A stretch of DNA of 62,288 bases. Source: Thermoplasmatota archaeon. GTDB lineage: Archaea > Thermoplasmatota > E2 > DHVEG-1. Numbering within the stretch: the first letter of the stretch is position 1; every line of letters begins with the position of its first letter. A program made the translations under genes and the position numbers. Shown here piece by piece: positions 1,955 through 43,234 of this stretch. The stretch lies in assembly GCA_016927555.1 (NCBI GenBank), contig JAFGML010000025.1, positions 1-62,288 on the forward strand, given 5' to 3'. Below the pieces are notes generated by a model. The model saw nothing but the letters and a program-made list of their open reading frames with translations. It was not told the origin of the DNA and ran no database searches.

Positions 1955-3295
1955 ATGAACATGAAGACCATCCTCTCTGTTGGAATCATTTTCTTGTTCG
2001 TTGGAACCTCTATCATTCCAGTGATTGCACAAGGCACTAAGAACTCTCAATCCTTGCGAGGGAATTGGTGGTATGTCGGTGGGACAGGACCTGGAAATTA
2101 TTCAAGGATTCAGGATGCGATTAATAATTCAAGTACTGGAGATACCGTCTTTGTGTACGATGGTGTATATTATGAAAATGTAGTCATCAATATAACTATC
2201 AATTTAATTGGTGGAAATAGAAACACGACGATTATTGATGGAAAGAAGAATAGTCATGTCATCGTTCTTGGTGCGGATAATATAAAGATAAGTGAGTTTA
2301 CAATACGAAATTGCTCTACTTTCCCTCATGAGTATACCCCTGAACTATTGATTTTCTCCAGCAATAATATAATTTCACACAATGTAATCTTGACCGATGA
2401 AGAGGCGCTGAATTATGGAATTACTATTGCAGGAAACCACAATAATATTATTGGAAATATTTTTATCAATAACTGGATTGGCGTTAAATTTGATGAAGGC
2501 GCCTCATACAATTACATCGCAGAAAATATTTTCAAATCACATCATGGGGTAGTCGGTGAAGCAAGTTGCCGGTTCAACAACATATTTCATAACAACATCT
2601 CAGGGTGGATTAATATTGTAGCAAATGCAAGTGATTGGGAGATTTCTTATAATCGCCTTTCAGGTGCCGGCATTTTCATCCATTATTGTACAAATATGAC
2701 TATCACCGGAAATGAAATCATCAACAGTAATCAAGCAATGAGTTTGTTTGATGATCATTATTTCTCTATCTCTAACAATTCTATTCACGGCCATCTTGAT
2801 ATTAGTTCCTGCTCTTATTTAACAATCATCAACAACACCATCGATACAGCCTCTGTTGGTATCTATTATAATGAGGTGAAGTATGGGAATATTTCCTTTA
2901 ACAAGATTGACGGGTGTGATTATGGATTGCAAATTACTTCTCCTGGAAAATCGAATTTCATCTTCAACAATGAGTTCAGAAATAACGAAGAAGGCTTATA
3001 CACACTCGTAGAGTTTGGGGCCGTAAAAATAACGTGTAACAATTTCATTAATAATTCAAGAGATATTAGCTTTGGACAACTCTTTCCTATCAGACGTCAG
3101 ACACCAAGACACCCTATTTTCGATAAAAACTACTATGATGATTGGAGCGGGGTTGGACCCAAGGTTTTATTGGGTCGTTCACTCATCTTTGCCATCTTCT
3201 TCTGGTATTTTTTTATCCCGATCTGCATCCCTGGGGTGTACTGCGACTGGCATCCTGCACAAGAACCCTATGACCTGCTTGAGGTGAGCTGTTGA
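1955..3295 (+). CDS. Secreted NosD-like beta-helix protein
   Basis: Start moved to MNMKTILSVGIIFLF (ATG 1955). YVGGTGPGNYSRIQDAINNSSTGDTVFVYDGVYYE N-cap and Asn/Ile-rich beta-helix repeats. Confidence 0.85.
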   Translation: MNMKTILSVGIIFLFVGTSIIPVIAQGTKNSQSLRGNWWYVGGTGPGNYSRIQDAINNSSTGDTVFVYDGVYYENVVINITINLIGGNRNTTIIDGKKNSHVIVLGADNIKISEFTIRNCSTFPHEYTPELLIFSSNNIISHNVILTDEEALNYGITIAGNHNNIIGNIFINNWIGVKFDEGASYNYIAENIFKSHHGVVGEASCRFNNIFHNNISGWINIVANASDWEISYNRLSGAGIFIHYCTNMTITGNEIINSNQAMSLFDDHYFSISNNSIHGHLDISSCSYLTIINNTIDTASVGIYYNEVKYGNISFNKIDGCDYGLQITSPGKSNFIFNNEFRNNEEGLYTLVEFGAVKITCNNFINNSRDISFGQLFPIRRQTPRHPIFDKNYYDDWSGVGPKVLLGRSLIFAIFFWYFFIPICIPGVYCDWHPAQEPYDLLEVSC

Positions 3296-32818: not shown

Positions 32819-33472
32819 TTAGTGCAACTCCTGTATCATCGCGTACAACAGCTGGGTGACGATTGCTTCAAAGCACCCACCGATGTTCAAGCAGGTCACC
32901 AAGGTAATGGTCGCGATAACTAACCCCAGGGTAATCGCCAGCGGAATAAAGACAAGGACCGTGATGAAGCACCCTAAGGCACTCGAGGTACTCAGACCCA
33001 GCGGCTGAGGAGAGTCGATGAGGGAAACAGGGAAATCAACCTCGCTAACGTACTCGTGTAGCAGCTCTGGGTGCTGTCGTACGTCATCAAAGTAGCGTTC
33101 CACATCAGCGACACTGTACCCATAGGACTGTAACAGCTGACGCACCTGAGGAGACGTGGTAATCTTTTTGAAGTAACCCTTGACGAGAATCGGGTTATTC
33201 TGCAGGAGCTGGAACGCTTTGTCCAACTGCGCCTGCAGCGTCGTACGCCCTGACTGGAAGAAATTCGTGGTTTTCCCTCGCCCTAGGTAATTGCGCGCGA
33301 TGATGCTGTTGGTGTGCTGCGCTGTTGACTGAGCGGTACGGACAGCAAAGAGTGGTGACTCGACTGATGAGCTTTCAGGTTGTGAGGATGGAACGCCAAT
33401 GACAGATGATAACGACGCCAGAATGAGAAGTACAGCTGCTCCACTACTCACACACATGGTCTTTTTCATCAT
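32819..33472 (-). CDS. Secreted/membrane hypothetical protein, paralog 1
   Basis: MKKTMCV leader; SPLF.VRT motif; conserved hydrophobic Cys-containing C-terminus. Confidence 0.82.
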   Translation of the reverse strand: MMKKTMCVSSGAAVLLILASLSSVIGVPSSQPESSSVESPLFAVRTAQSTAQHTNSIIARNYLGRGKTTNFFQSGRTTLQAQLDKAFQLLQNNPILVKGYFKKITTSPQVRQLLQSYGYSVADVERYFDDVRQHPELLHEYVSEVDFPVSLIDSPQPLGLSTSSALGCFITVLVFIPLAITLGLVIATITLVTCLNIGGCFEAIVTQLLYAMIQELH

Positions 33473-33648
33473 ACTAAAACCCCATAGTACGTATATATTA
33501 TAAGGTTTAACTATATAACTATATCGTAGAGGAAATAAAAAAAAACGCCTTCTGATAAACACACAGCCTCACGTGGCGATATGTTCATCGACAGACGGAA
33601 TGTTCAATCACAGAGTCTGGTTCTCTTCCTGCTTTTTTCCCACGGTCT

Positions 33649-34305
33649 TTACGAGAGTCCCTGGATCATACTGTTGAAGAGATTCTCAAAGCAGTTGTTG
33701 ATGTTCAAACAGGTCACCAGTGTCATTGTGGCGATCAGTATTGACAGAACGAGAAACACAGGCAGCAGGACGATGATGGTGATGACGCAGCCTAGGCCAC
33801 TGGATGTGTTGAGGAGCTGTGCCGGTTGGAACCCCCCGGGTACTTGTATTGATTCTTCGATAGCACCCATCTCACCAGCGAGCAGTTCAGGGGTGTGCTT
33901 CACCTGGTTGAAGTACGCTATGACCTGTTGTTCACTTAATCCTTGCTCCTGTAGTGTGCACTGTATCTGTGGATTGCGGAGGGCGTTTCGTAAATTTTTT
34001 TCAATGATGCCAGGGGAGATGCGTAGCAATTGCAGTCCCCGCTCGATGAGTGACTGCGTTGACGACAAGCGACCAAAGAACAGAGGTGATGTTTCCCCTT
34101 TTCCGAGGTACATCGTGTGGACTGAGGTGTCAAGGTGATGCCCTGTGGATCGTGAGGTCCGAACAGAAAACAAAGGTGATTGTATCGTGTCCTCGGTGTG
34201 TTCTCCTGGTGAGGTGTTCCACCCAATGACCGATGAGATTGAGGCTAGAATCAGAACAACAGCTGCTGTACAACTTACCACTACCAACCTTTTCTTCATA
34301 CGCAT
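33649..34305 (-). CDS. Secreted/membrane hypothetical protein, paralog 2
   Basis: MRMKKRLVV leader; same SPLF.VRT, YLG.G.T and TLVTCLNI..CFE motifs as paralog 1. Confidence 0.82.
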   Translation of the reverse strand: MRMKKRLVVVSCTAAVVLILASISSVIGWNTSPGEHTEDTIQSPLFSVRTSRSTGHHLDTSVHTMYLGKGETSPLFFGRLSSTQSLIERGLQLLRISPGIIEKNLRNALRNPQIQCTLQEQGLSEQQVIAYFNQVKHTPELLAGEMGAIEESIQVPGGFQPAQLLNTSSGLGCVITIIVLLPVFLVLSILIATMTLVTCLNINNCFENLFNSMIQGLS

Positions 34306-34423
34306 TCCTCTTCTAAGTGATATATCCCGCCTCATGTATAAAAATATATCGAAGGACGAATCGTAAAAAGGCTATCTCTGTACGCTTGCAGTATCTTGAT
34401 GGTGTTCCTCTCTCGGCTCCTAC

Positions 34424-35074
34424 TTACTTTTTCGCAGAAACCCAGACCGCACTCCCGAGCGGGAGCACCGTCTTCCCACTCATGGTGTTCAGCAGAATCG
34501 CTGCCGCGCCATAAAAGGACAACAGCGAGGTTAGTACCAGAAACACCCCTGCTGGTTGTGCGGTCCACTCAACCAGGTAGTGGAGAATGAGTAAGATGAC
34601 CGCGAGGTCCACAGCAAGTAAAATGGCTACAAACGTTTTGTTGGTCCTTAACGCTGCTACCGTAGCGATGAGCGAAAACACAAGGATACCTATCAGTCCA
34701 AACGCATAGTGTGTGAGATCAAAAGGCACACCAGTAAAGATGGTGATACACAGAGTCACTGCGATGGAGTACATCGTCATTGCGTACACCGAAAAGACGG
34801 TTGCACCGAAAATGTTGTTCCGTTTGAACTCCATCGTACCAGCGATGAGCTGCGCGGTAGCACCAAAGAACAACACCCAGGGGATCGCGAGTGATTTTGC
34901 AGTTGTCGATGTTAATCTGAGGTCTATGGATCCTAACACGAGTGCAGCAATAGCTAAGCCTAGCAATCCTAATGCAGCCGGCTCTGCAACCGGCGTTGCT
35001 GTGCCTACTGTGTCTGAAGATTTTTGCTTCTGCTGGTTTGCTTGAGTCGGTGTCGACTTTGAATCATGCTCCAT
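34424..35074 (-). CDS. Acetate/succinate uptake channel, SatP/GPR1/FUN34/YaaH family
   Basis: AEPAALGLLGL, FFGATAQLIAG.MEF.R.N.FGAT.F..Y; six hydrophobic helices. Confidence 0.85.
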   Translation of the reverse strand: MEHDSKSTPTQANQQKQKSSDTVGTATPVAEPAALGLLGLAIAALVLGSIDLRLTSTTAKSLAIPWVLFFGATAQLIAGTMEFKRNNIFGATVFSVYAMTMYSIAVTLCITIFTGVPFDLTHYAFGLIGILVFSLIATVAALRTNKTFVAILLAVDLAVILLILHYLVEWTAQPAGVFLVLTSLLSFYGAAAILLNTMSGKTVLPLGSAVWVSAKK

Positions 35075-37402
35075 TTACTTCCACTGCTCCCAATACCGTT
35101 TCTTCACCGTTGGCGGGTGTTCGCCTTTTTCGTACACCCCACCCCACGTATTCAACCCCTGTTGCTCATCGTTGTCAATTTTTTCTTGCAGCATCTGCAG
35201 CATCTTTATCTCGGTAAACCCAAGCTGCTTCATTTTCTGCGGTGTCGGAATCCCATTGGGTGTCCACCCGCGACGGTAGTACACCGCATCTGCGAGCTTC
35301 TCATACTGATTCCGGCGGTAGGCGTACAACCTCGTGAGTTTCTCCTTCGTCGTCATCGTCTCAACCTCGCCTTTCGAAAGACCCAGTTTGTCAACCAGCT
35401 GGGTGTCATACCGCTCCTTCCGTGAGACGTACTCCATCTCTGTGACTGGCCCCATTGCCCGGAAGGGGATCCAATCATCCTTTCGCTGCCCGCGACCGAG
35501 CCACACGTTCATCGCACGCTGCCAGTTGTAGCACCGCTCGCTTTGCAGAATCAAGTCCTCTTTTGTGACACTCCATCCAGTCATCGCATTCTGGTACGCC
35601 ACGTAGTTCTCTACATGCTCTGGGACCTTTGACGGCTCTGCGGTCTCGGCGTTGTTTGCCGGCTCGATGTCATTCCAGGGCAACTTACAGAGGCCGTTGA
35701 GCCCAAACCACGTCCGCCACATCGGGAAGTAGTGCAGCGCCTCTGCTTTCATCTCAAACGTCGGAATCGCATTGTTCACCATGTCCATGAAGATGAGCCA
35801 TGCTTCATCATGTTGTGGTCCTTTCAACGTCAGTCCATACCCACCCTGCATCGCCAGTGACTCCTTGGTGACATACTCTGAGAACTCCAGACCTTTGCTC
35901 TCCATGCCCGCGTCATTCACAAGCTGGGGATCCCCCCACTGGTTCTTGATGATCCAGTCTTTCACCCGTCGGACTCCTTTGCCTGCGACTTTGATGAACT
36001 CAGCATGGTCCCCTTGTGCCATGCGATGGAGCAACTCAAGGGCGGCATCAGCGTTGCCAAAGCACAGCTCCAAACCATTGCATCGCTCCTTGTTCAAGAT
36101 GCCGTACTCATACATCTCCATGTAAAACGCGGTCGCTGTGCCTGCTGAAATCGTATCAATACCATAGGTGTCACAGTAGAAGTTGAACTCCAGCACCCAA
36201 AGTGGGTCCCAGATGCTCATGTTCGCACAAGCACCAATGGTCTCATACTCAGGGCCGTCCACCGTGACTTTCTCGCCTTTATACGGCCCGGTCATCACCG
36301 TGTAGCCATCTACGGTTTTTGCACACGCCATCGTGCACCCATGCCAGCACCCATCAGGAATGATTTTCGTAAACAGTTCGTAGAAATGCGGTGAGAAGAT
36401 CTTCGAAGCTTTCGGAAAACTCCCGAACCGATAATTCTCTGTGGGTAACAAATCATAGGCATCCATGATCTCCACGAGATGTCCGGTCCCAACAGTACGC
36501 ATGTTGCATTGGTACCGATCGAGATCACGGATTTCACGATGCAGTTTCGTGCCGACTTTCGCCAGTGTCACAGGATCAGCTGGATGATTGGACACCCCAT
36601 CAAATCGTTCGACTTTCACGACGAGCGCCTTTATTTTCTTATCTCGGAGCACGGTGCCCAGTCCACCACGACCTGCTTGCTTGATACGAGGCACTTTCCG
36701 CCGGATGTCATAGAAGGAGAAATTCAGGCACCCCCAGAAGCTGTGCTCAGCTGCTGTCCCTGAGGAGACCACTGAGACTTTCTGTCGTGCTTTATCTGTG
36801 TGTTCTGTCGCGTACATCTCCGTGAGCTGCTCACTGAGCAAATGAGTGTCTGTTTCTTCTAACGGAGCAGTTTCAATAGTGACTGTTCCTTTTTCTCCAT
36901 CAATAACAACAATAACGTCTTCGCTGGCCTTCCCTTGTATCTCCAGTGCATCAAACCCAGCGAACTTCAGGTACGGGCCGAAGAAGCCACCTACGTTACA
37001 ATCGCAAATAATGTTTGTGGAAGGAGAAACACTCAAACACAGAGATTTCCCTGAGCCTGCATACTGGGTGGTGCCGCAGAGCGGACCAGTCGTGATGAGC
37101 AGCTCATTCTCCTCGCTGTCCCATCGTGTCGTCGGCTGAATTGACTCCCATATCAGCTTGAGCCCAAATCCTCGACCACCGGTGAACAACTTCTTCATCT
37201 GGTCTGAGACAGGTTTTTCTGAGATCTCCTTCGTGCCTACATTGACGTACAGTGTTCTGTTTGCGTACCCTCTCTCAACACTCCCTTTTGTATAGGAATA
37301 GGATGCCAGCTTCTTATGAGCCGCTTTCAAGCGCTGTACATCCCACTGATGGGGTGTGTTTCCAGTACTGTACTCCTCGACCGGTATCTGTCCTTCCATC
37401 AT
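35075..37402 (-). CDS. Tungsten-type aldehyde:ferredoxin oxidoreductase, catalytic subunit
   Basis: GGRGFG, GPL.G, AGRGGLG, GCWHGCTMAC, GPEYET, CDTYGIDTIS, KGLE, GLCKLPW, YYRRGW...G.PT; start placed at MMEGQ. Confidence 0.93.
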   Translation of the reverse strand: MMEGQIPVEEYSTGNTPHQWDVQRLKAAHKKLASYSYTKGSVERGYANRTLYVNVGTKEISEKPVSDQMKKLFTGGRGFGLKLIWESIQPTTRWDSEENELLITTGPLCGTTQYAGSGKSLCLSVSPSTNIICDCNVGGFFGPYLKFAGFDALEIQGKASEDVIVVIDGEKGTVTIETAPLEETDTHLLSEQLTEMYATEHTDKARQKVSVVSSGTAAEHSFWGCLNFSFYDIRRKVPRIKQAGRGGLGTVLRDKKIKALVVKVERFDGVSNHPADPVTLAKVGTKLHREIRDLDRYQCNMRTVGTGHLVEIMDAYDLLPTENYRFGSFPKASKIFSPHFYELFTKIIPDGCWHGCTMACAKTVDGYTVMTGPYKGEKVTVDGPEYETIGACANMSIWDPLWVLEFNFYCDTYGIDTISAGTATAFYMEMYEYGILNKERCNGLELCFGNADAALELLHRMAQGDHAEFIKVAGKGVRRVKDWIIKNQWGDPQLVNDAGMESKGLEFSEYVTKESLAMQGGYGLTLKGPQHDEAWLIFMDMVNNAIPTFEMKAEALHYFPMWRTWFGLNGLCKLPWNDIEPANNAETAEPSKVPEHVENYVAYQNAMTGWSVTKEDLILQSERCYNWQRAMNVWLGRGQRKDDWIPFRAMGPVTEMEYVSRKERYDTQLVDKLGLSKGEVETMTTKEKLTRLYAYRRNQYEKLADAVYYRRGWTPNGIPTPQKMKQLGFTEIKMLQMLQEKIDNDEQQGLNTWGGVYEKGEHPPTVKKRYWEQWK

Positions 37403-37403
37403 G

Positions 37404-37853
37404 TTACGCCCCTTGTTTATGGTAGACGACTTGCTTGATGTCCTCAATATTTCTTTCCACCAGCTCTAGTGCTTTTGTTGGACAGGCACGCACGCAGGAG
37501 CCACAGGAGATGCACTTGAACGGCTCGATGCGCACGTCTGTTTTACGCATCGCACCAATAGGGCAGAACCCGACGCAGGCTTGACACCCGATGCACGTTT
37601 CTTTATCGAGCCACACCACACCGTTTTTCCTCCGTGTCAAAGCACCTACCGGGCACATGTCGAGACACAACCCACGTTGATCGCAGACGTGCATCGCGAA
37701 ATCTTTGTTGTGCTTGAGAATACGGATGGCGGAGAGCTCTCCACCTTTCTTTGATTTAAAATGGACTTGTGAGCATGCTTTTTCACAGTCAAGACAACCG
37801 GTGCATTTCTCCGCATGGAAGATGAGGACTTTCACAGTGGTTGGTTGGCTCAT
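37404..37853 (-). CDS. 4Fe-4S poly-ferredoxin subunit (AOR small subunit-like)
   Basis: CTGCLDCEKAC, CDQRGLCLDMCP, CIGCQACVGFCP, CISCGSCVRACP. Confidence 0.9.
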   Translation of the reverse strand: MSQPTTVKVLIFHAEKCTGCLDCEKACSQVHFKSKKGGELSAIRILKHNKDFAMHVCDQRGLCLDMCPVGALTRRKNGVVWLDKETCIGCQACVGFCPIGAMRKTDVRIEPFKCISCGSCVRACPTKALELVERNIEDIKQVVYHKQGA

Positions 37854-37866
37854 TTTTGAAACCTCG

Positions 37867-38517
37867 CTACAACCACCAGATGATGATGGTGTTTGTGATC
37901 ACCACTATCCAGCAGAGGGCTGACACTCCATAGGTGAGGGGGTAGTACAATCGATCTGTTACGTGAATGTCAATGTGTTGTACTGCAAAGACCACAGGAA
38001 CGGTCACTGCTCCGAGCAGGGCAGCAAGCAACCCGCTCGCAAGGATGTTGGGGATAAATCCAATCAGATTCGCGAGGTGGAACCCTGCTGACGAGACGAA
38101 GGGGGTGAGGATCTGTGTGATGATGTACCCGCTGATGTACACGAGATAGGTGATGGTGGTCCCAAGACTTGTCTGTATGGTCACTGTCTGCTTCTGTTTC
38201 ATATCGACCGACAGCCCTGTCCAGATGAGGTCAAAGAGGACTCCTTCTGCCATAATCGCTATGGCAGAGCATAGGAAACACCCGCCAAATGGGTTGAATA
38301 ACCGTAGGCTTCCTGCGATCAGGCCGATGCCTGCCTGCATCCCAGGTTGTCGAAACGCTAGTCTACTGTACGAGAGCAGGCCAATGGCAAACACACTGGT
38401 CATAATCGCTCCCGCAGGGAGATTGACATCACGTAGGAATGAGCCAATGATGCACTCTGAAAACCCCCAGAGCGACCCAAAGACGAGGATTGCTGCAATC
38501 AGCTTCGTTCTTTCCAT
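37867..38517 (-). CDS. About 6-TM membrane protein resembling ECF S-components
   Basis: Size and hydropathy; LWGFSE..IG, P.G.G...G..A, AIAIMAEG pattern. Family call is by resemblance only. Confidence 0.55.
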   Translation of the reverse strand: MERTKLIAAILVFGSLWGFSECIIGSFLRDVNLPAGAIMTSVFAIGLLSYSRLAFRQPGMQAGIGLIAGSLRLFNPFGGCFLCSAIAIMAEGVLFDLIWTGLSVDMKQKQTVTIQTSLGTTITYLVYISGYIITQILTPFVSSAGFHLANLIGFIPNILASGLLAALLGAVTVPVVFAVQHIDIHVTDRLYYPLTYGVSALCWIVVITNTIIIWWL

Positions 38518-38519
38518 AG

Positions 38520-38915
38520 TTACATCACCTCGATTCGTACGATATCATCGACTCGAAACGCTTTTGGTAGATCTGTGAAAACTGCTTTTCCCTCAGCCGT
38601 CAGCAACCCGTTCCTCAAATTCTCCCAGGTCACGGTTTTTTCATAGCCATCTGCTCCAACGAGGGTGTACTGATGGTGCCCGGGGTCAGAGACACCGGCT
38701 GTGATGATCAGGTCATCAAATGCAATACCTGAATAGTTGAGGTTAGGAAACTCCCGTGGTTGTACCAGGGAAAACAGCTGGTCGAGAGTGTACATCTGTC
38801 CGTTCACCTCGACAGACTCTGTGGGGAGTTGCGTTGTGTACACGTACATCGATGATACACTCCCGGTGAGTAAAACGAGTAGCGCACACAGTGGAATGAG
38901 TTGTTCCTTCCCCAT
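38520..38915 (-). CDS. Membrane-anchored truncated molybdopterin-binding (SUOX/MsrP-like) fold protein without the catalytic Cys
   Basis: YTLDQL, YSGIAFDDLI...G, LVGADGY...V.W.NL, RV.DIV.IEV. Confidence 0.6.
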   Translation of the reverse strand: MGKEQLIPLCALLVLLTGSVSSMYVYTTQLPTESVEVNGQMYTLDQLFSLVQPREFPNLNYSGIAFDDLIITAGVSDPGHHQYTLVGADGYEKTVTWENLRNGLLTAEGKAVFTDLPKAFRVDDIVRIEVM

Positions 38916-38948
38916 CGGTATCGAAGGGAGGGATGCTCCAAGAGCTAT

Positions 38949-39689
38949 TTAATCGTTATGACATGCAGCGCGCACACCGTTCTTCCGTACTCGCTCAGCA
39001 AAATGCCGTAGCGTCTCTTCATCTTGGGGTCGCCATTGAATACGCTCCAGGAGCGCATAGGCGATTTCTGTGTTGAGGTGCTCGACAGGCCATTTCGCGG
39101 CTCGAAGGTAGGCGTTGATACACGCGTGGCAGAGCTGCACTTTTTCCTTGGTAAACATGGGGTCTGTGCTGAGTAGCGATGCGCAGAGTGTCGCGACATC
39201 TTCGCTTGGTTTTCCGGGACGTGACTCCTCAAAGTCAACGCCCCAGACACGGTCTTTGCTGAAAATAAAATTACGCAGGCTTGCGTCACCACGGATGCGA
39301 AATCCATCCTCTGATCTGAATAACGAATGGAATTGAACCAACCAGTCAGCTAGTAGCAGAATGATGCGTTCTTTCTCCTGGAATGTCTTGTGACTATCGT
39401 TGATGATATCACAGACATTTTCCCCCATGATGTAGCTCATGATCAGGACGTTGTTGTCTGTATCTTTGTCAAGAGGCGAGGGTATCGCGAGCTCAGCGCA
39501 CCCTTTTTGTAGAATGCTGTACTCAAGGTCCATGTTCTGCTTCAAGCCTGGGACAAACCATTTGAACACCCGGGGTTGGCCTTCATAGACGACATAGCCG
39601 ACTGTGTTTTTTTTACTCTCAAACTCTTTTTGTAACAACGCGGATTGGTACTTCTCCTCTTTCTTCAGAAGGTCTTTAATATCTCTCAT
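38949..39689 (-). CDS. APH/choline-kinase/RIO-like phosphotransferase
   Basis: VFKWF (beta-3 Lys), E helix, LIMSYIMGE, RGDASLRNF catalytic loop, GVDFE, EDVA. Confidence 0.75.
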   Translation of the reverse strand: MRDIKDLLKKEEKYQSALLQKEFESKKNTVGYVVYEGQPRVFKWFVPGLKQNMDLEYSILQKGCAELAIPSPLDKDTDNNVLIMSYIMGENVCDIINDSHKTFQEKERIILLLADWLVQFHSLFRSEDGFRIRGDASLRNFIFSKDRVWGVDFEESRPGKPSEDVATLCASLLSTDPMFTKEKVQLCHACINAYLRAAKWPVEHLNTEIAYALLERIQWRPQDEETLRHFAERVRKNGVRAACHND

Positions 39690-39743
39690 TCTCAATGACG
39701 AGTAATAGACGAAAAGACATAAAGGTTGTGATGAGAAACAACT

Positions 39744-40349
39744 CTATGTCCCTGGAGTGACCTCTATTAGAGTCACCATCTTCAGCCAGAATTCTGAGGG
39801 AGTAAAGGCGCCCTCATCAACGTACGCTATCCGTAAGGGACCAACATCAGTGTCATTTATATATTCATCATTTTCCTTGTACACGAGCACCATCGTTACC
39901 TCTCCAGATTCAAGGACTTCTCCTGCGTCATTGTACATTGGAACGATTCCTTTGATTTCGCTGAGAGTATAGGTTCTTGAATAATTATCAATAGAGGTAA
40001 CAGTGATACTGTAATTATTCGGGAGCCCTTGGAGGTGTTCCAGCAGAACGAGAAGGGGAACCCCTGTGTATTCGAAGGGACCAGTCGTGCTCACTGTTGG
40101 AAGAACCTTTGTCTTAATGTACCCCCCACTTCCTGTGATTGGTTCTAATGCTTCTAAATCATCTAACGTGTAATTTGTGTATGAACCATTGAATGAAACA
40201 GTGAGAAGTGTTGTTGATGGTACTAGCGGGGTCGTTGAGTCTTGTTCTGTTTGCGGTGGTGGGAGATTCACGTAGATGAACACAGCTAGTGAGAGGAGAA
40301 GTGCGCCGGCGACTGCTGCTGAAAGGATGATATGTGTTGTTTTTGCCAT
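39744..40349 (-). CDS. Membrane-anchored molybdopterin-binding (SUOX/MsrP-like) fold protein with no Cys
   Basis: YTLDDLEAL, EYTGVPLLVLLE, VTSIDNY, VLVYKENDE, GPLRI, WLKMVTLIEV. Confidence 0.72.
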   Translation of the reverse strand: MAKTTHIILSAAVAGALLLSLAVFIYVNLPPPQTEQDSTTPLVPSTTLLTVSFNGSYTNYTLDDLEALEPITGSGGYIKTKVLPTVSTTGPFEYTGVPLLVLLEHLQGLPNNYSITVTSIDNYSRTYTLSEIKGIVPMYNDAGEVLESGEVTMVLVYKENDEYINDTDVGPLRIAYVDEGAFTPSEFWLKMVTLIEVTPGT

Positions 40350-40373
40350 GCGATGGCGTATTTGCTAGTTCTA

Positions 40374-41294
40374 TTAAACAGTTTCTAACACCTCAGGGCT
40401 GCGCGTTGTCCGTGCTGTCAGGACGATACCGATGAGGATAATTCCGCCACCAATCACTGTGTAGGCTGATGGTACTTGTGCCGCCCAGGACACGGCGATG
40501 AATTGTGGAATGAGAAATGCTAACAACGACGAGCCTATCGGTTCTCCGAGCAGAGCCACGGACATCACCGAAGCGTTGATGTGGCCAAGGGACCAGTTGT
40601 AGAGTGTATGGCCGAAGATACCAGAGATTAACGCCATGAAGAAGATGAGGATGGAGTCGTTTGAACTCACAATATGTACCGGTTCTCCCAGTAGCAGGCA
40701 GATGAACAACAACGTGATGGTGCTGACGCTGTAGACGACGAAGGCGTACGATACCGTTGAGACTGTTCTCCTCAGCTTGCGTCCTCCGAGGATGTAGAGT
40801 CCTGCAGCGGCACCTCCGAGCATGGCTAGGATGTTGCCTTCGATGGTGTTGAATCCAAACGCTGAGAACCCGTAGTTCCCTATGACGAGGACGGCGATAC
40901 CAACCAGGGAGATGGTGATGCCGAACACGTTCACCCAGCTGAGTTTCTCTTTGAAGAAGTAGAACGAGACTGGTGCGACGAGAACCGGGTGTGCTGTGAC
41001 CAGGACCACTGAACTAGCAACCGACGTCAGTGTTAACGACGTGATCCACAGCGCGAAGTGTGCTGCAAGGATCACCCCGATGAGTATCATAATTCCTACG
41101 GTGAGTCGTGGGAGCGCTCGGAGTTCATTTCGTATTGGTTTTCGTAGGAGGACAAGTGGGGCGAGAAGAAGGGTGGTGAAGAGGATGCGGTAGAATGCGA
41201 TGCTGAGTGGTGGTGCGGTACAGGATAAAATAAAAATAGATGCGAAGGATACTGCGACGATAGAAATAAACAGGCCCAGGTAGTGCTTCTGCAT
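40374..41294 (-). CDS. EamA/DMT family transporter
   Basis: Two EamA halves; IAFYR, AHF.LWITSL..TSVASSVVL, GHTLYNWSL, LGEPIGSSLLA. Confidence 0.9.
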   Translation of the reverse strand: MQKHYLGLFISIVAVSFASIFILSCTAPPLSIAFYRILFTTLLLAPLVLLRKPIRNELRALPRLTVGIMILIGVILAAHFALWITSLTLTSVASSVVLVTAHPVLVAPVSFYFFKEKLSWVNVFGITISLVGIAVLVIGNYGFSAFGFNTIEGNILAMLGGAAAGLYILGGRKLRRTVSTVSYAFVVYSVSTITLLFICLLLGEPVHIVSSNDSILIFFMALISGIFGHTLYNWSLGHINASVMSVALLGEPIGSSLLAFLIPQFIAVSWAAQVPSAYTVIGGGIILIGIVLTARTTRSPEVLETV

Positions 41295-41341
41295 CGCAGT
41301 GAGTAATCGTGCGCCCCGCTATTTGTTTTTCTCTCTTTGTT

Positions 41342-42532
41342 TTACGAGGGCTGAGCGAATGGTTTCGAGTAGTTCACGAGGAGGACGAGGGAGAAGAGCA
41401 GGGTGAGTGCCCCCAGTAAGGCAAACGGCATCCAGATGCCGATGAGATCAGCAAGCAGGCCACCTGCGAAGAGCAGGATGGTTCCTCCACCAGTTTGGAA
41501 AGTAAAGGTGAGTCCAAAGGTCCAGCCTTCCACAGATTCATGGGTGACCTCAGAGATGAACGATGCCAAAGCAGGATACGTGAGGAACACCGCAATGCCA
41601 AGGAGGATCATCAGGATGATGAGGATCCAGAGGGTGGTGACCACGGCCAACGCAAGGCTAATACTTCCTATGAGAATGTAGGAGATGAGGAGGAGTTTTT
41701 TCCTACCAACATACGATTGTATTGTGCCATAGGACAAGGACGCAAGGCTTCCCACCACCGCCCACAGGGCGATTAACACTCCGATGAGGGGCAGCGAATA
41801 CGTAGTTTTTTCTGTCAGCAGTAACGGCAGGTAGGTCACGATGATGCCCCAGCAGGCTCCGCTGATGACAAACGCAGGGACTAAGCGGCGCATGGATCGT
41901 ATTCGTTTCATAGCATCGTGCAGTGTCTCCTTAACAGAGTGCTGTGTTGTATCCCGGGGGACAATGAGCAGTGATTTCTCCAGGGCTGTAGTCAAACCTA
42001 GACTGAGCAGTAAGATCAGGGTGCCGAGGACTGCCCAGATGAACAAGGGAATGGTCCAGTGGGTCAGCTCGCTGATGAACAGCGTTGTTGCAAGAGCAGT
42101 GAAGACACCAATGTCTGCTGCGCCACTCTGAATGCCCATAGCCCAATCCAACTTTCCTCTCTTGTAGGTTCGTGAGATCCATCCGGTGCCGATGGGGTGG
42201 AAGAACGCAGTCGCGAATCGCAGTAGGAAGACGAAGAGCAGCAGCGTGAGGTAGTTCGAGCTGAAGGTGAGCAGTAGCAATGCAATGCAGGTGAACAGGA
42301 TGCCGATGTGAAGAAAGATATCGACGTTTTTCCCGTCAGCTAGCCTTCCGAGTATCAATTGTCCAACAAGGGTGAGGAACAGTCCTCCGCCCGTGATGAT
42401 TCCCACCTCAGTGTAACTGAGGGTGAAGAGATCTTTGAAGACAGGAAACAGAATAGCGATGACCGTGACTGCGGCATCGTTCACTGCATGAATCATACTC
42501 ACGCTCGTCAGAATCCTTCCCTGAGGTGTCAT
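41342..42532 (-). CDS. MFS transporter (FSR-like)
   Basis: HAVND, GRLAD, FFHP.G; 12 hydrophobic segments. Confidence 0.88.
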   Translation of the reverse strand: MTPQGRILTSVSMIHAVNDAAVTVIAILFPVFKDLFTLSYTEVGIITGGGLFLTLVGQLILGRLADGKNVDIFLHIGILFTCIALLLLTFSSNYLTLLLFVFLLRFATAFFHPIGTGWISRTYKRGKLDWAMGIQSGAADIGVFTALATTLFISELTHWTIPLFIWAVLGTLILLLSLGLTTALEKSLLIVPRDTTQHSVKETLHDAMKRIRSMRRLVPAFVISGACWGIIVTYLPLLLTEKTTYSLPLIGVLIALWAVVGSLASLSYGTIQSYVGRKKLLLISYILIGSISLALAVVTTLWILIILMILLGIAVFLTYPALASFISEVTHESVEGWTFGLTFTFQTGGGTILLFAGGLLADLIGIWMPFALLGALTLLFSLVLLVNYSKPFAQPS

Positions 42533-42625
42533 GGTGTGCTAGGCGGGTAAGGGTTGACACATTATATTCCTTGCTGGTGCTGTCGAAGGATAAAACATAA
42601 ACCCTCTGGTGTGTTATCATTTTTT

Positions 42626-43234
42626 ATGTCAGCCCCTGTTGTGTATGGAGTCTATGGACCATCTGATTCTGGAAAAACAAGGCTTGTGGAACAGCTCGTT
42701 ACTACTTTTACTAAAGACGGGTATAGTGTTGCGACAGTGAAACAAACACACAAAGCCATATCCTTAGACATGGCGCACAAAGACACCTGGCGACACCATG
42801 CTGCTGGAGCCAGGCTCGTGGTCTTCTCCTCTGCTTCTGAGACCGTTTTTCTTGTCCACCATCGTCTTGACAGTAGTACTATTCTTCAGAGAGTACACGA
42901 CTTCGGCGGGATAGATCTTGTCCTTGTGGAAGGAGCCCGCGATCCATCTATACCGAAGATACAGCTTGGGATGGGGAAAAAACGGACTCACACTCTTCTG
43001 ACGTACTCCAATAATTACTCTGATGTTCTATCAATAATCAAAAAAGAGTTGAAAATGAAACAATCGTTACATCGCATTCACATCACTGTTAATGGGAAAA
43101 GTATCCCTCTCTCCGCATTCCCTGAAAGCATTTTTACCAATACGCTCATTGGAATGTTGCAATCGTTGAAAGGCGTCCGTGACATCACTGATGTCACGAT
43201 TCAGTTACACCATAACAAAAAGAAAAAACGCTGA
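42626..43234 (+). CDS. mobB: Molybdopterin-guanine dinucleotide biosynthesis protein MobB with archaeal C-terminal domain
   Basis: Start moved to MSAPVV. P-loop GPSDSGKT, VATVKQTH, KDTWRHHAAGA, LVLVEG; C-terminal ITVNGK.IPL..FP..I. Confidence 0.9.
   Translation: MSAPVVYGVYGPSDSGKTRLVEQLVTTFTKDGYSVATVKQTHKAISLDMAHKDTWRHHAAGARLVVFSSASETVFLVHHRLDSSTILQRVHDFGGIDLVLVEGARDPSIPKIQLGMGKKRTHTLLTYSNNYSDVLSIIKKELKMKQSLHRIHITVNGKSIPLSAFPESIFTNTLIGMLQSLKGVRDITDVTIQLHHNKKKKR

Follow-up and report, generated by a model that had tools for sequence, protein, structure and literature searches.

A putative importer of the tungsten/molybdenum pterin cofactor alternates with cofactor biosynthesis genes in a class of Thermoplasmatota archaea

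How can an archaeon keep an enzyme built around a tungsten (W)- or molybdenum (Mo)-pterin cofactor when no pathway for making the pterin can be recognised in its genome? To our knowledge, textbooks hold that every cell with a Mo or W enzyme must build this labile cofactor itself. The question is raised by a locus in a 62,288-nucleotide stretch of DNA from a Thermoplasmatota archaeon (assembly GCA_016927555.1, contig JAFGML010000025.1; the whole stretch is hereafter called the window), in which a gene for an aldehyde:ferredoxin oxidoreductase (AOR) lies on the minus strand close behind the genes for two small proteins, P131 (131 aa; 38520-38915) and TM6 (216 aa; 37867-38517). Judging from gene content, we think it rather likely that this locus is an uptake or salvage system for ready-made W/Mo pyranopterin cofactor, or for a very late precursor of it, that replaces synthesis. 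The set of surface binder (P131), membrane protein (TM6), and nucleoside triphosphatase (NTPase) is probably a prokaryotic importer of the W/Mo-pterin cofactor, and the first to become known. Although the fold families have been described before, the function proposed here is new, as is the architecture of three parts.

The first part of the answer is that the cofactor pathway is missing from far more than the window, in which there are no moa/moe or Wtp genes, as the sequence-only reading of this DNA had stated. In the whole window genome (G000, 85% complete), profile searches found no MoaA C-domain, MoaC, or MoeA_N, tblastn searches with the proteins of a relative found no MoeA, MoaB, MoaC, WtpA, or MOSC, and there was no MoaE. 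Among 14 reference genomes, 11 gave a match in the control searches for the pathway genes. In the 34 other genomes of the same order that were sampled, MoaC, the MoaA C-domain, and MoeA_N are likewise missing, with the exception of G005. In that genome, a 7.2-kb contig (C21; L024) contains MoaA, MoaC, MoaE, and MoeA together, which makes it the sole such genome of the genus; it also has the TM6 module, and its Moa contig may stem from contamination or have been acquired recently.

The enzyme, on the other hand, has been kept. AOR is present in 148 of the 197 species genomes of the class and is nearly universal in this lineage. The window AOR (775 aa, YdhV-like; 35075-37402 on the minus strand, counted from its ATG) matches AFOR_N and AFOR_C with 166 and 289 bits, respectively, and an alignment to Pyrococcus 1AOR shows that the [4Fe-4S] Cys motif, GPEYE, CDxxGxDTIS, and AGRGG are retained; the second DxxGLC motif reads GLNGLC, and its Asp is not evident there. 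Because the AOR motifs are intact and the Moa/Moe genes are missing, these organisms retain a tungsto-/molybdo-bispterin enzyme although no route to the pterin is recognisable in them.

What takes the place of the pathway is suggested by the distribution of TM6, MoaC, and AOR, which we searched in all 197 species genomes of the class. TM6 is present in 129 of these. Among the 148 genomes with AOR, 122 have TM6 and no MoaC and 14 have MoaC and no TM6; the sequence-only reading had proposed to look for Moa genes in other carriers, and these indeed have no moaA, moaC, or moeA. The incompleteness of metagenome-assembled genomes (MAGs) was ruled out as the cause of the missing Moa genes, which are absent from all 122 AOR-positive and TM6-positive genomes, including four single-contig assemblies (64-89% complete, estimated) and MAGs with an estimated completeness of >95%. 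The two states alternate inside genera g14 (G178-G181 vs. G177 and G039), g73 (G182 vs. G183 and G184), and g74 (G186 and G188 vs. G185 and G187), between the genera of family f10 (G165), and within family f1, in which G042 of genus g17 has MoaC and lacks TM6. Those genomes that are Moa-positive have a single compact cassette that consists of WtpA, a permease, an ABC/TOBE protein, MoaA, MoaC, MoaB, and MoeA. Because the Moa-Wtp cassette and TM6 alternate inside genera and families, the choice lies between two cassettes, and no other evidence speaks as strongly as this complementarity for the TM6 module as a provider of what the Moa-Wtp cassette otherwise supplies. WtpABC/ModABC together with MoaABC-MoeA serve the same end, namely W/Mo-pterin for AOR, and a minority of the relatives, those without TM6, have them as one cassette; they differ in combining biosynthesis with oxyanion uptake by an ATP-binding cassette (ABC) transporter, and are wholly missing from the window genome. 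The Moa-Wtp cassettes of two different orders have 71% DNA identity over 6.5 kb (L025 4173-10559 and L040 6160-12566), which suggests transfer, or unusually strong conservation, as a unit. A small MOSC-domain gene adjoins the cassette in L040 (12153-12584).

The composition of the alternating cassette also bears on what is being supplied. P131, TM6, and the NTPase may take up tungstate, molybdate, or thiometallate as a new type of transport system that replaces WtpABC, with the pterin coming from another source. WtpABC belongs to the cassette that alternates with TM6, the window genome has no WtpA, and the invariant membrane Cys and Glu of TM6 could bind thiometallate; the Moco (molybdenum cofactor) riboswitch, found near bacterial TM6 genes as described below, is reported to control metal transporters too (PMC2408646). 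However, MoaA, MoaC, MoaB, and MoeA are missing in TM6-positive genomes, so that such a system would deliver metal to cells with neither pterin nor insertase, and the partner protein P131 has a pterin-binding rather than an oxyanion-binding fold. We therefore regard metal uptake as unlikely and favor uptake of the cofactor.

To define the module, about 40 loci were read with local hidden Markov model (HMM) searches. P131 is directly upstream of TM6 in every locus read, both class-wide and in bacteria. In families f1-f3, which make up this order, the genes run P201-kinase-P131-TM6-ferredoxin-AOR, where P201 is a second protein related to P131, and the AOR subfamily differs (775 aa and YdhV-like in f1, canonical with ~610 aa in f2/f3). 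In families f4 and f10 (11 loci), the order is P131-TM6-NTPase_1 and the genes are located away from AOR; NTPase_1 is a ~165-aa P-loop NTPase (PF03266/DUF2478) encoded directly after TM6. The one locus of family f11 (L032) has P131-TM6, again away from AOR, and no NTPase_1 gene next to it. The conserved core is thus P131, TM6, and a P-loop NTPase, often away from AOR, and the suggestion of the sequence-only reading that the system is built around AOR is not supported by the sister families. Two variations were seen in single families. In f10, a membrane protein of 63-86 aa with a weak DUF3149 match precedes P131 (L031 7971-8159, L035 1986-2243, L030, and L037) and may be an extra component of the module. 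In L015 of family f2 (G030), a ThiF/MoeB-like E1 gene (2456-3058) is found directly after TM6, with AOR elsewhere.

The same core is found in bacteria, where it is wired to a Moco riboswitch and a TonB receptor. The genes for a P131-like protein, TM6, and MobB, a P-loop GTPase, are consecutive in L134; MobB and TM6 are adjacent in Aminicenantes, and such bacterial adjacency was observed in L004, L042, L043, and L134. In L051, MobB, a TonB receptor, and TM6 belong to one operon, and in L009, TM6 is followed by an NTPase_1 gene. Two long proteins have TM6 fused to an NTPase_1/DUF2478 domain, and the gene of a TM6 homologue with 38% identity (P0248) has that of a P131 homologue ahead of it (hhalign 99.9%). 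The Mo/W-cofactor riboswitch RF01055 lies directly upstream of the TonB receptor gene in four Aminicenantes loci and scores 72-80 bits there, the gathering score being 36 (all on the minus strand: L004 12568-12688, L042 10599-10719, L041 5015-5135, and L043 10426-10546). This riboswitch-linked receptor gene is convergent with MobB-TM6, and its product is a candidate for bringing the cofactor or the metal across the outer membrane. The sequence-only reading had expected an association with Mo/W loci in other genomes, which was found in these forms: exclusion of Moa-Wtp, an adjoining or fused MobB or NTPase_1, and a TonB receptor under a Moco riboswitch. Three other candidates in these bacterial loci were rejected. 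In L051, the small proteins encoded behind TM6 do not resemble P131, the 438-aa protein that precedes the Aminicenantes MobB shows no relationship to the additional membrane domain found in the TM6 fusions, and a "162-aa" open reading frame (ORF) in L004 is merely a TonB receptor plug that is split by masked bases. The order P131-TM6-ferredoxin-AOR is also kept in L133. In a Planctomycetaceae MAG (L048 3705-8555), a distant TM6 homologue is found directly after a Fer4_11 protein and an NrfD-cytochrome c3 fusion, a context that is different and respiratory-looking.

These gene orders can also be read in terms of AOR itself, with P131 and TM6 as structural or electron-transfer partners of AOR-ferredoxin that form an anchor coupling aldehyde oxidation to the membrane. 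The E. coli YdhV/YdhY system has membrane partners, and the enzyme encoded here is YdhV/YdhY-like; in addition, the P131-TM6-ferredoxin-AOR operon is tight (gaps of 2, 13, and 1 nt), and its gene order is retained with two AOR subfamilies in f1-f3 and in L133. This reading, however, is difficult to reconcile with the P131-TM6 pairs that are found away from AOR in f4, f10, and f11 (with NTPase_1 in f4/f10) or with the bacterial homologues that are paired with MobB and TonB receptors in the absence of AOR. It also leaves the anticorrelation between TM6 and Moa unexplained, and TM6 shows no evident motif for a redox cofactor. We consider a role as AOR anchor very unlikely, and return to the import of the cofactor with its three components.

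P131, TM6, and P201 have no family match in Pfam or NCBIfam. For P131, the AlphaFold2 (AF2) model has a pLDDT of 79, and a Foldseek search against PDB placed PruR structures on top (7kp2, 7kou, and 7kos, representing proteins from Vibrio, Agrobacterium, and Klebsiella), followed by sulfite oxidase and YedY. This similarity was not detected by HMMER, as the HMM search of PDB sequences gave four chance-level matches with a best E-value of 0.3. P131 has a single N-terminal hydrophobic helix, followed by a mini-SUOX (PruR-like) ectodomain without Cys, and its residues Y91, W97, and F120 are invariant. PruR is a periplasmic protein with the sulfite oxidase (SUOX) fold that has no Mo-ligating cysteine and holds small pterins between Tyr and Trp (PMC11194511); Y91, W97, and F120 are candidates for the counterparts of its pterin-sandwich residues (Asn/Tyr/Trp), which are conserved in PruR-type proteins along with a PW motif.

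P201 (201 aa; 39744-40349, minus strand) was assigned to the SUOX fold by profile comparison. It shows the SUOX C-terminal motif LAYxxNG..L..GPLRIAFV..W.K.V..IE, its best match among PDB sequences is PruR 7kom (E-value of 0.059), and it has a single N-terminal hydrophobic helix and no cysteine. P201 and P131 are remote homologues (hhalign probability 78%, E-value 1.7e-5); BLASTP found no similarity between them, and profile comparison alone connects the two. A Mo-ligand cysteine is absent from both P201 and the P131 ectodomain, and neither has a Pfam Oxidored_molyb match, which is in agreement with the earlier description of two non-catalytic Moco-fold proteins at this locus. In these respects they differ from the SUOX-family molybdoenzymes, such as sulfite oxidase and YedY/MsrP, which have that match and a Mo-coordinating cysteine. 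Because each has an N-terminal anchor with a lysine just ahead of it, P131 and P201 are predicted to face outward. P201 is kept in families f1 and f2 and missing from the f4/f10 modules, so this protein is a putative order-specific accessory binder.

The likeness to PruR is one of architecture. PruR (Agrobacterium Atu3496 and its Vibrio and Klebsiella counterparts; 7kos, 7kp2, 7kom, and 7rkb) is small, exported, and consists almost entirely of a SUOX-type fold, as does P131. It shares the absence of the Mo-ligating cysteine with both P131 and P201, for which we propose, by analogy, the same role of binding a pterin outside the cytoplasm. The differences are that PruR is proteobacterial, binds tetrahydromonapterin, and signals to the GGDEF-EAL protein DcpA, whereas P131 and P201 are membrane-anchored and archaeal and the partners of P131 are a six-helix membrane protein and a P-loop NTPase. 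The gene downstream of P131 is always TM6 and not a DcpA-type sensor. These differences are relevant to another explanation, in which the module performs PruR-like pterin sensing, with the surface binder signaling through TM6 and the NTPase or kinase and nothing being imported. The closest solved structures do belong to a signaling protein (PMC11194511), and a kinase is present in this order. Nevertheless, an output domain, whether of the DcpA type or another, is absent, TM6 lacks a signaling domain in the cytoplasm, and both the mutual exclusion with the biosynthetic cassette and the Moco-riboswitch context favor supply over sensing. We regard sensing as highly improbable, and the capture of the cofactor for import as the better account of P131.

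The membrane protein TM6 has five invariant residues, W17, G18, E21, C80, and C83, even among homologues with 33-46% identity, and its transmembrane helix 1 has a small-xxx-small motif. Among 1.8 billion representative proteins, scanned in full, only 122 clusters of this family were found, which marks it as a small and undescribed one. A homologue search with a diverse TM6 profile retrieved only close relatives. In a Foldseek search with the TM6 model, the top two matches were S-components of energy-coupling factor (ECF) transporters, 5edl (YkoE-type) and 5kbw (RibU), with a TM-score of about 0.5, and all other matches had a TM-score of <0.3; the HMM search of PDB sequences found no match, S-components included. 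These results lend weak support to an S-component-like topology. The earlier suggestion that TM6 resembles an S-component is thus weakly supported, in that its only fold matches are S-components. An EcfT/EcfA module does not accompany it: neither EcfT nor an ABC ATPase was found adjoining TM6 in about 35 loci (the rest of the genomes were not searched for a shared module). As do YkoE and RibU, which serve scarce cofactors, TM6 has roughly 200 aa and six helices. In contrast to ECF importers, the NTPase linked to TM6 is of the MobB or THEP1 type rather than an ABC ATPase, and TM6 is accompanied by an extracytoplasmic binding protein, which ECF systems normally do not have.

In the window, the third component is plausibly MobB, which is encoded on the plus strand (42554-43234; likely start at 42626, judged from the P-loop position) and is divergent from the other genes, ~4 kb from the core. 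It matches TIGR00176 with 101.6 bits (cut-off 76.2) and PF03205 with 95.8 bits (cut-off 26.6; E-value of 2.5e-27), its P-loop reads GPSDSGKT, and it is syntenic in family f1. This MobB is plausibly the counterpart of NTPase_1 because distant TM6 homologues adjoin, or are fused to, MobB or NTPase_1. The E. coli MobB belongs to the same family and is likewise a P-loop GTPase tied to Moco handling. It is dispensable, whereas the window MobB is coupled genomically to a membrane protein, in a genome with neither MobA nor MoeA nor any of the Moa genes.

On this basis, a mechanism of cofactor import can be proposed. P131, and P201 where present, would bind the extracellular cofactor, for example molecules set free from detrital Mo/W proteins. 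With its invariant W17, E21, C80, and C83, TM6 would act as an S-component-like permease that moves the cofactor across the membrane, and MobB (NTPase_1 in the sister families) would either power this step or take the cargo and hand it to apo-AOR, the presumed client enzyme for the imported cofactor. The kinase, in this order only, may restore the phosphate of imported dephospho-molybdopterin or modify the cargo in some other way. As MoeA, MoaB, and WtpA are missing too, the cargo would most simply be the metal-loaded cofactor. These archaea are seen as organisms that break down detrital protein in anoxic sediment, which would give them a plausible source of protein-bound cofactor, as in Caenorhabditis elegans. 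That animal uses ready-made, probably protein-derived dietary Moco instead of synthesis (PMC7849362). The case differs from the present one in that C. elegans is a eukaryote, and the part of that report that was consulted identifies no transporter; a prokaryotic counterpart did not come up in the papers searched. We put forward a broader reading tentatively, as a close call that falls a little on the doubtful side: the W/Mo pyranopterin cofactor may be vitamin-like in anoxic sediments, and most species of the class may be auxotrophs that import the intact cofactor through a new type of transporter. With the same reserve, the importer in this broader reading would consist of the mini-SUOX binder, the S-component-like permease, and a MobB/THEP1 NTPase, with MobB as the receiver or energiser.

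Several points weigh against the import of the cofactor. Among the AOR-positive genomes, two have both TM6 and MoaC and 10 have neither, although most of these 10 are <90% complete. The association between TM6 and MoaC in these genomes (Fisher p = 1.4e-11) is uncorrected for phylogeny, and most of the class genomes in the count are MAGs. As the Moa-Wtp cassette includes WtpABC, the complementarity could equally mean metal uptake; for the window genome, the negative result concerns WtpA, and TupA-type binding proteins were not searched. Furthermore, some steps in the class may be non-canonical and escape searches by homology, because MoaE is undetectable even in the Moa-positive relatives (G039, G177, G183-G193, and G042), which gave no PF02391 match although the controls did; the molybdopterin (MPT)-synthase step in this class may be non-canonical. 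The structural comparisons have limits as well. The Foldseek scores of P131 against PruR are marginal (E-value of 1.6e-3, TM-score of about 0.54), the AF2 model of TM6 is poor (pLDDT 55, from a shallow alignment), and its matches to 5edl and 5kbw (probabilities of 0.96 and 0.92) are weak at an E-value of 0.44. Free Moco is very labile, which makes the uptake of the intact molecule chemically demanding, and the pocket of PruR has been reported to be too short for Moco.

Our literature search found no described prokaryotic importer of Moco or of a pterin cofactor and no report of these archaea lacking the cofactor pathway. The closest named relatives of the window locus are from "Thermoplasmatales archaeon SM1-50" and Thermoplasmata MAGs, and the SM1-50 locus is fully syntenic with it except for SatP, the gene downstream of AOR. 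Sediment archaea related to SM1-50 have been credited with AOR activity in a paper that makes no mention of molybdenum or tungsten (PMC9585477). The three-gene core that stands, species by species, in place of a seven-gene cassette for biosynthesis and tungstate uptake is a testable candidate for an importer. If confirmed, Moco or the tungsten cofactor (Wco) would join the cofactors that are traded in microbial communities, and the metabolic reconstructions of abundant sediment archaea, namely the relatives of SM1-50, would change. A function would be suggested for the MobB and THEP1/DUF2478 NTPases, and MobB, long an orphan, would gain its actual role, in which it receives the imported cofactor in the cytoplasm or powers the import. 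Such an importer could also become a tool for delivering the cofactor to Moco-deficient cells.

As for the remaining genes of the locus, the ORFs and spacings reported in the sequence-only reading were reproduced, including gene order, strands, and the divergent MobB. Nine genes lie on the minus strand between 34424 and 42532, and the intergenic gaps in P131/TM6/ferredoxin/AOR/SatP are 2, 13, 1, and 0 nt in that order. The kinase gene (38949-39695, minus strand) is located between those of P201 and P131, a position that is kept in f1-f3. Its product is Bud32/RIO/APH-like: the Pfam matches to APH, RIO1, and ABC1 are weak (that to APH being limited to the catalytic loop), the NCBIfam Bud32 match scores 28 bits against a cut-off of 199, and the nearest PDB entries are archaeal Bud32-type kinases. 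The catalytic motifs are intact, with K45, E58, RGDxxLRN (D137 and N142), and DFEE (D154) invariant. A metagenome scan with the kinase profile returned only relatives with 55-68% identity and is uninformative on bacterial kinases. The gene is missing from the f4/f10 modules, such that the kinase and P201 are add-ons confined to this order.

The poly-ferredoxin gene (37404-37853, minus strand) encodes a YdhY-like protein with four [4Fe-4S] motifs according to Pfam and NCBIfam. It is always between TM6 and AOR in f1-f3, and its product is the electron partner of AOR. SatP, an acetate-type channel of the SatP/AceTr family (34424-35074, minus strand; PF01184 and NF038013), occupies this position in the window genome only and is absent or vestigial in relatives. 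It had been counted as part of the unit; its restriction to this genome speaks against that, and SatP is probably a metabolic partner of AOR outside the uptake module. The two transporters upstream on the same strand had been considered as importers, but their synteny is confined to the family in the case of the EamA-family protein (40374-41294; PF00892), which was found in f1 loci L001, L019-L022, and L034 only, and to the genus in the case of the MFS_1 transporter (41342-42532; PF07690), which was found in L001, L002, and L022 only. Just downstream of SatP are two tandem paralogues on the minus strand (32819-33562 and 33649-34335), which have a similar signal or anchor segment, …AVLLILAS(L/I)SSVIG…, and a common C-terminal membrane segment, …LVTCLNI..CFE….

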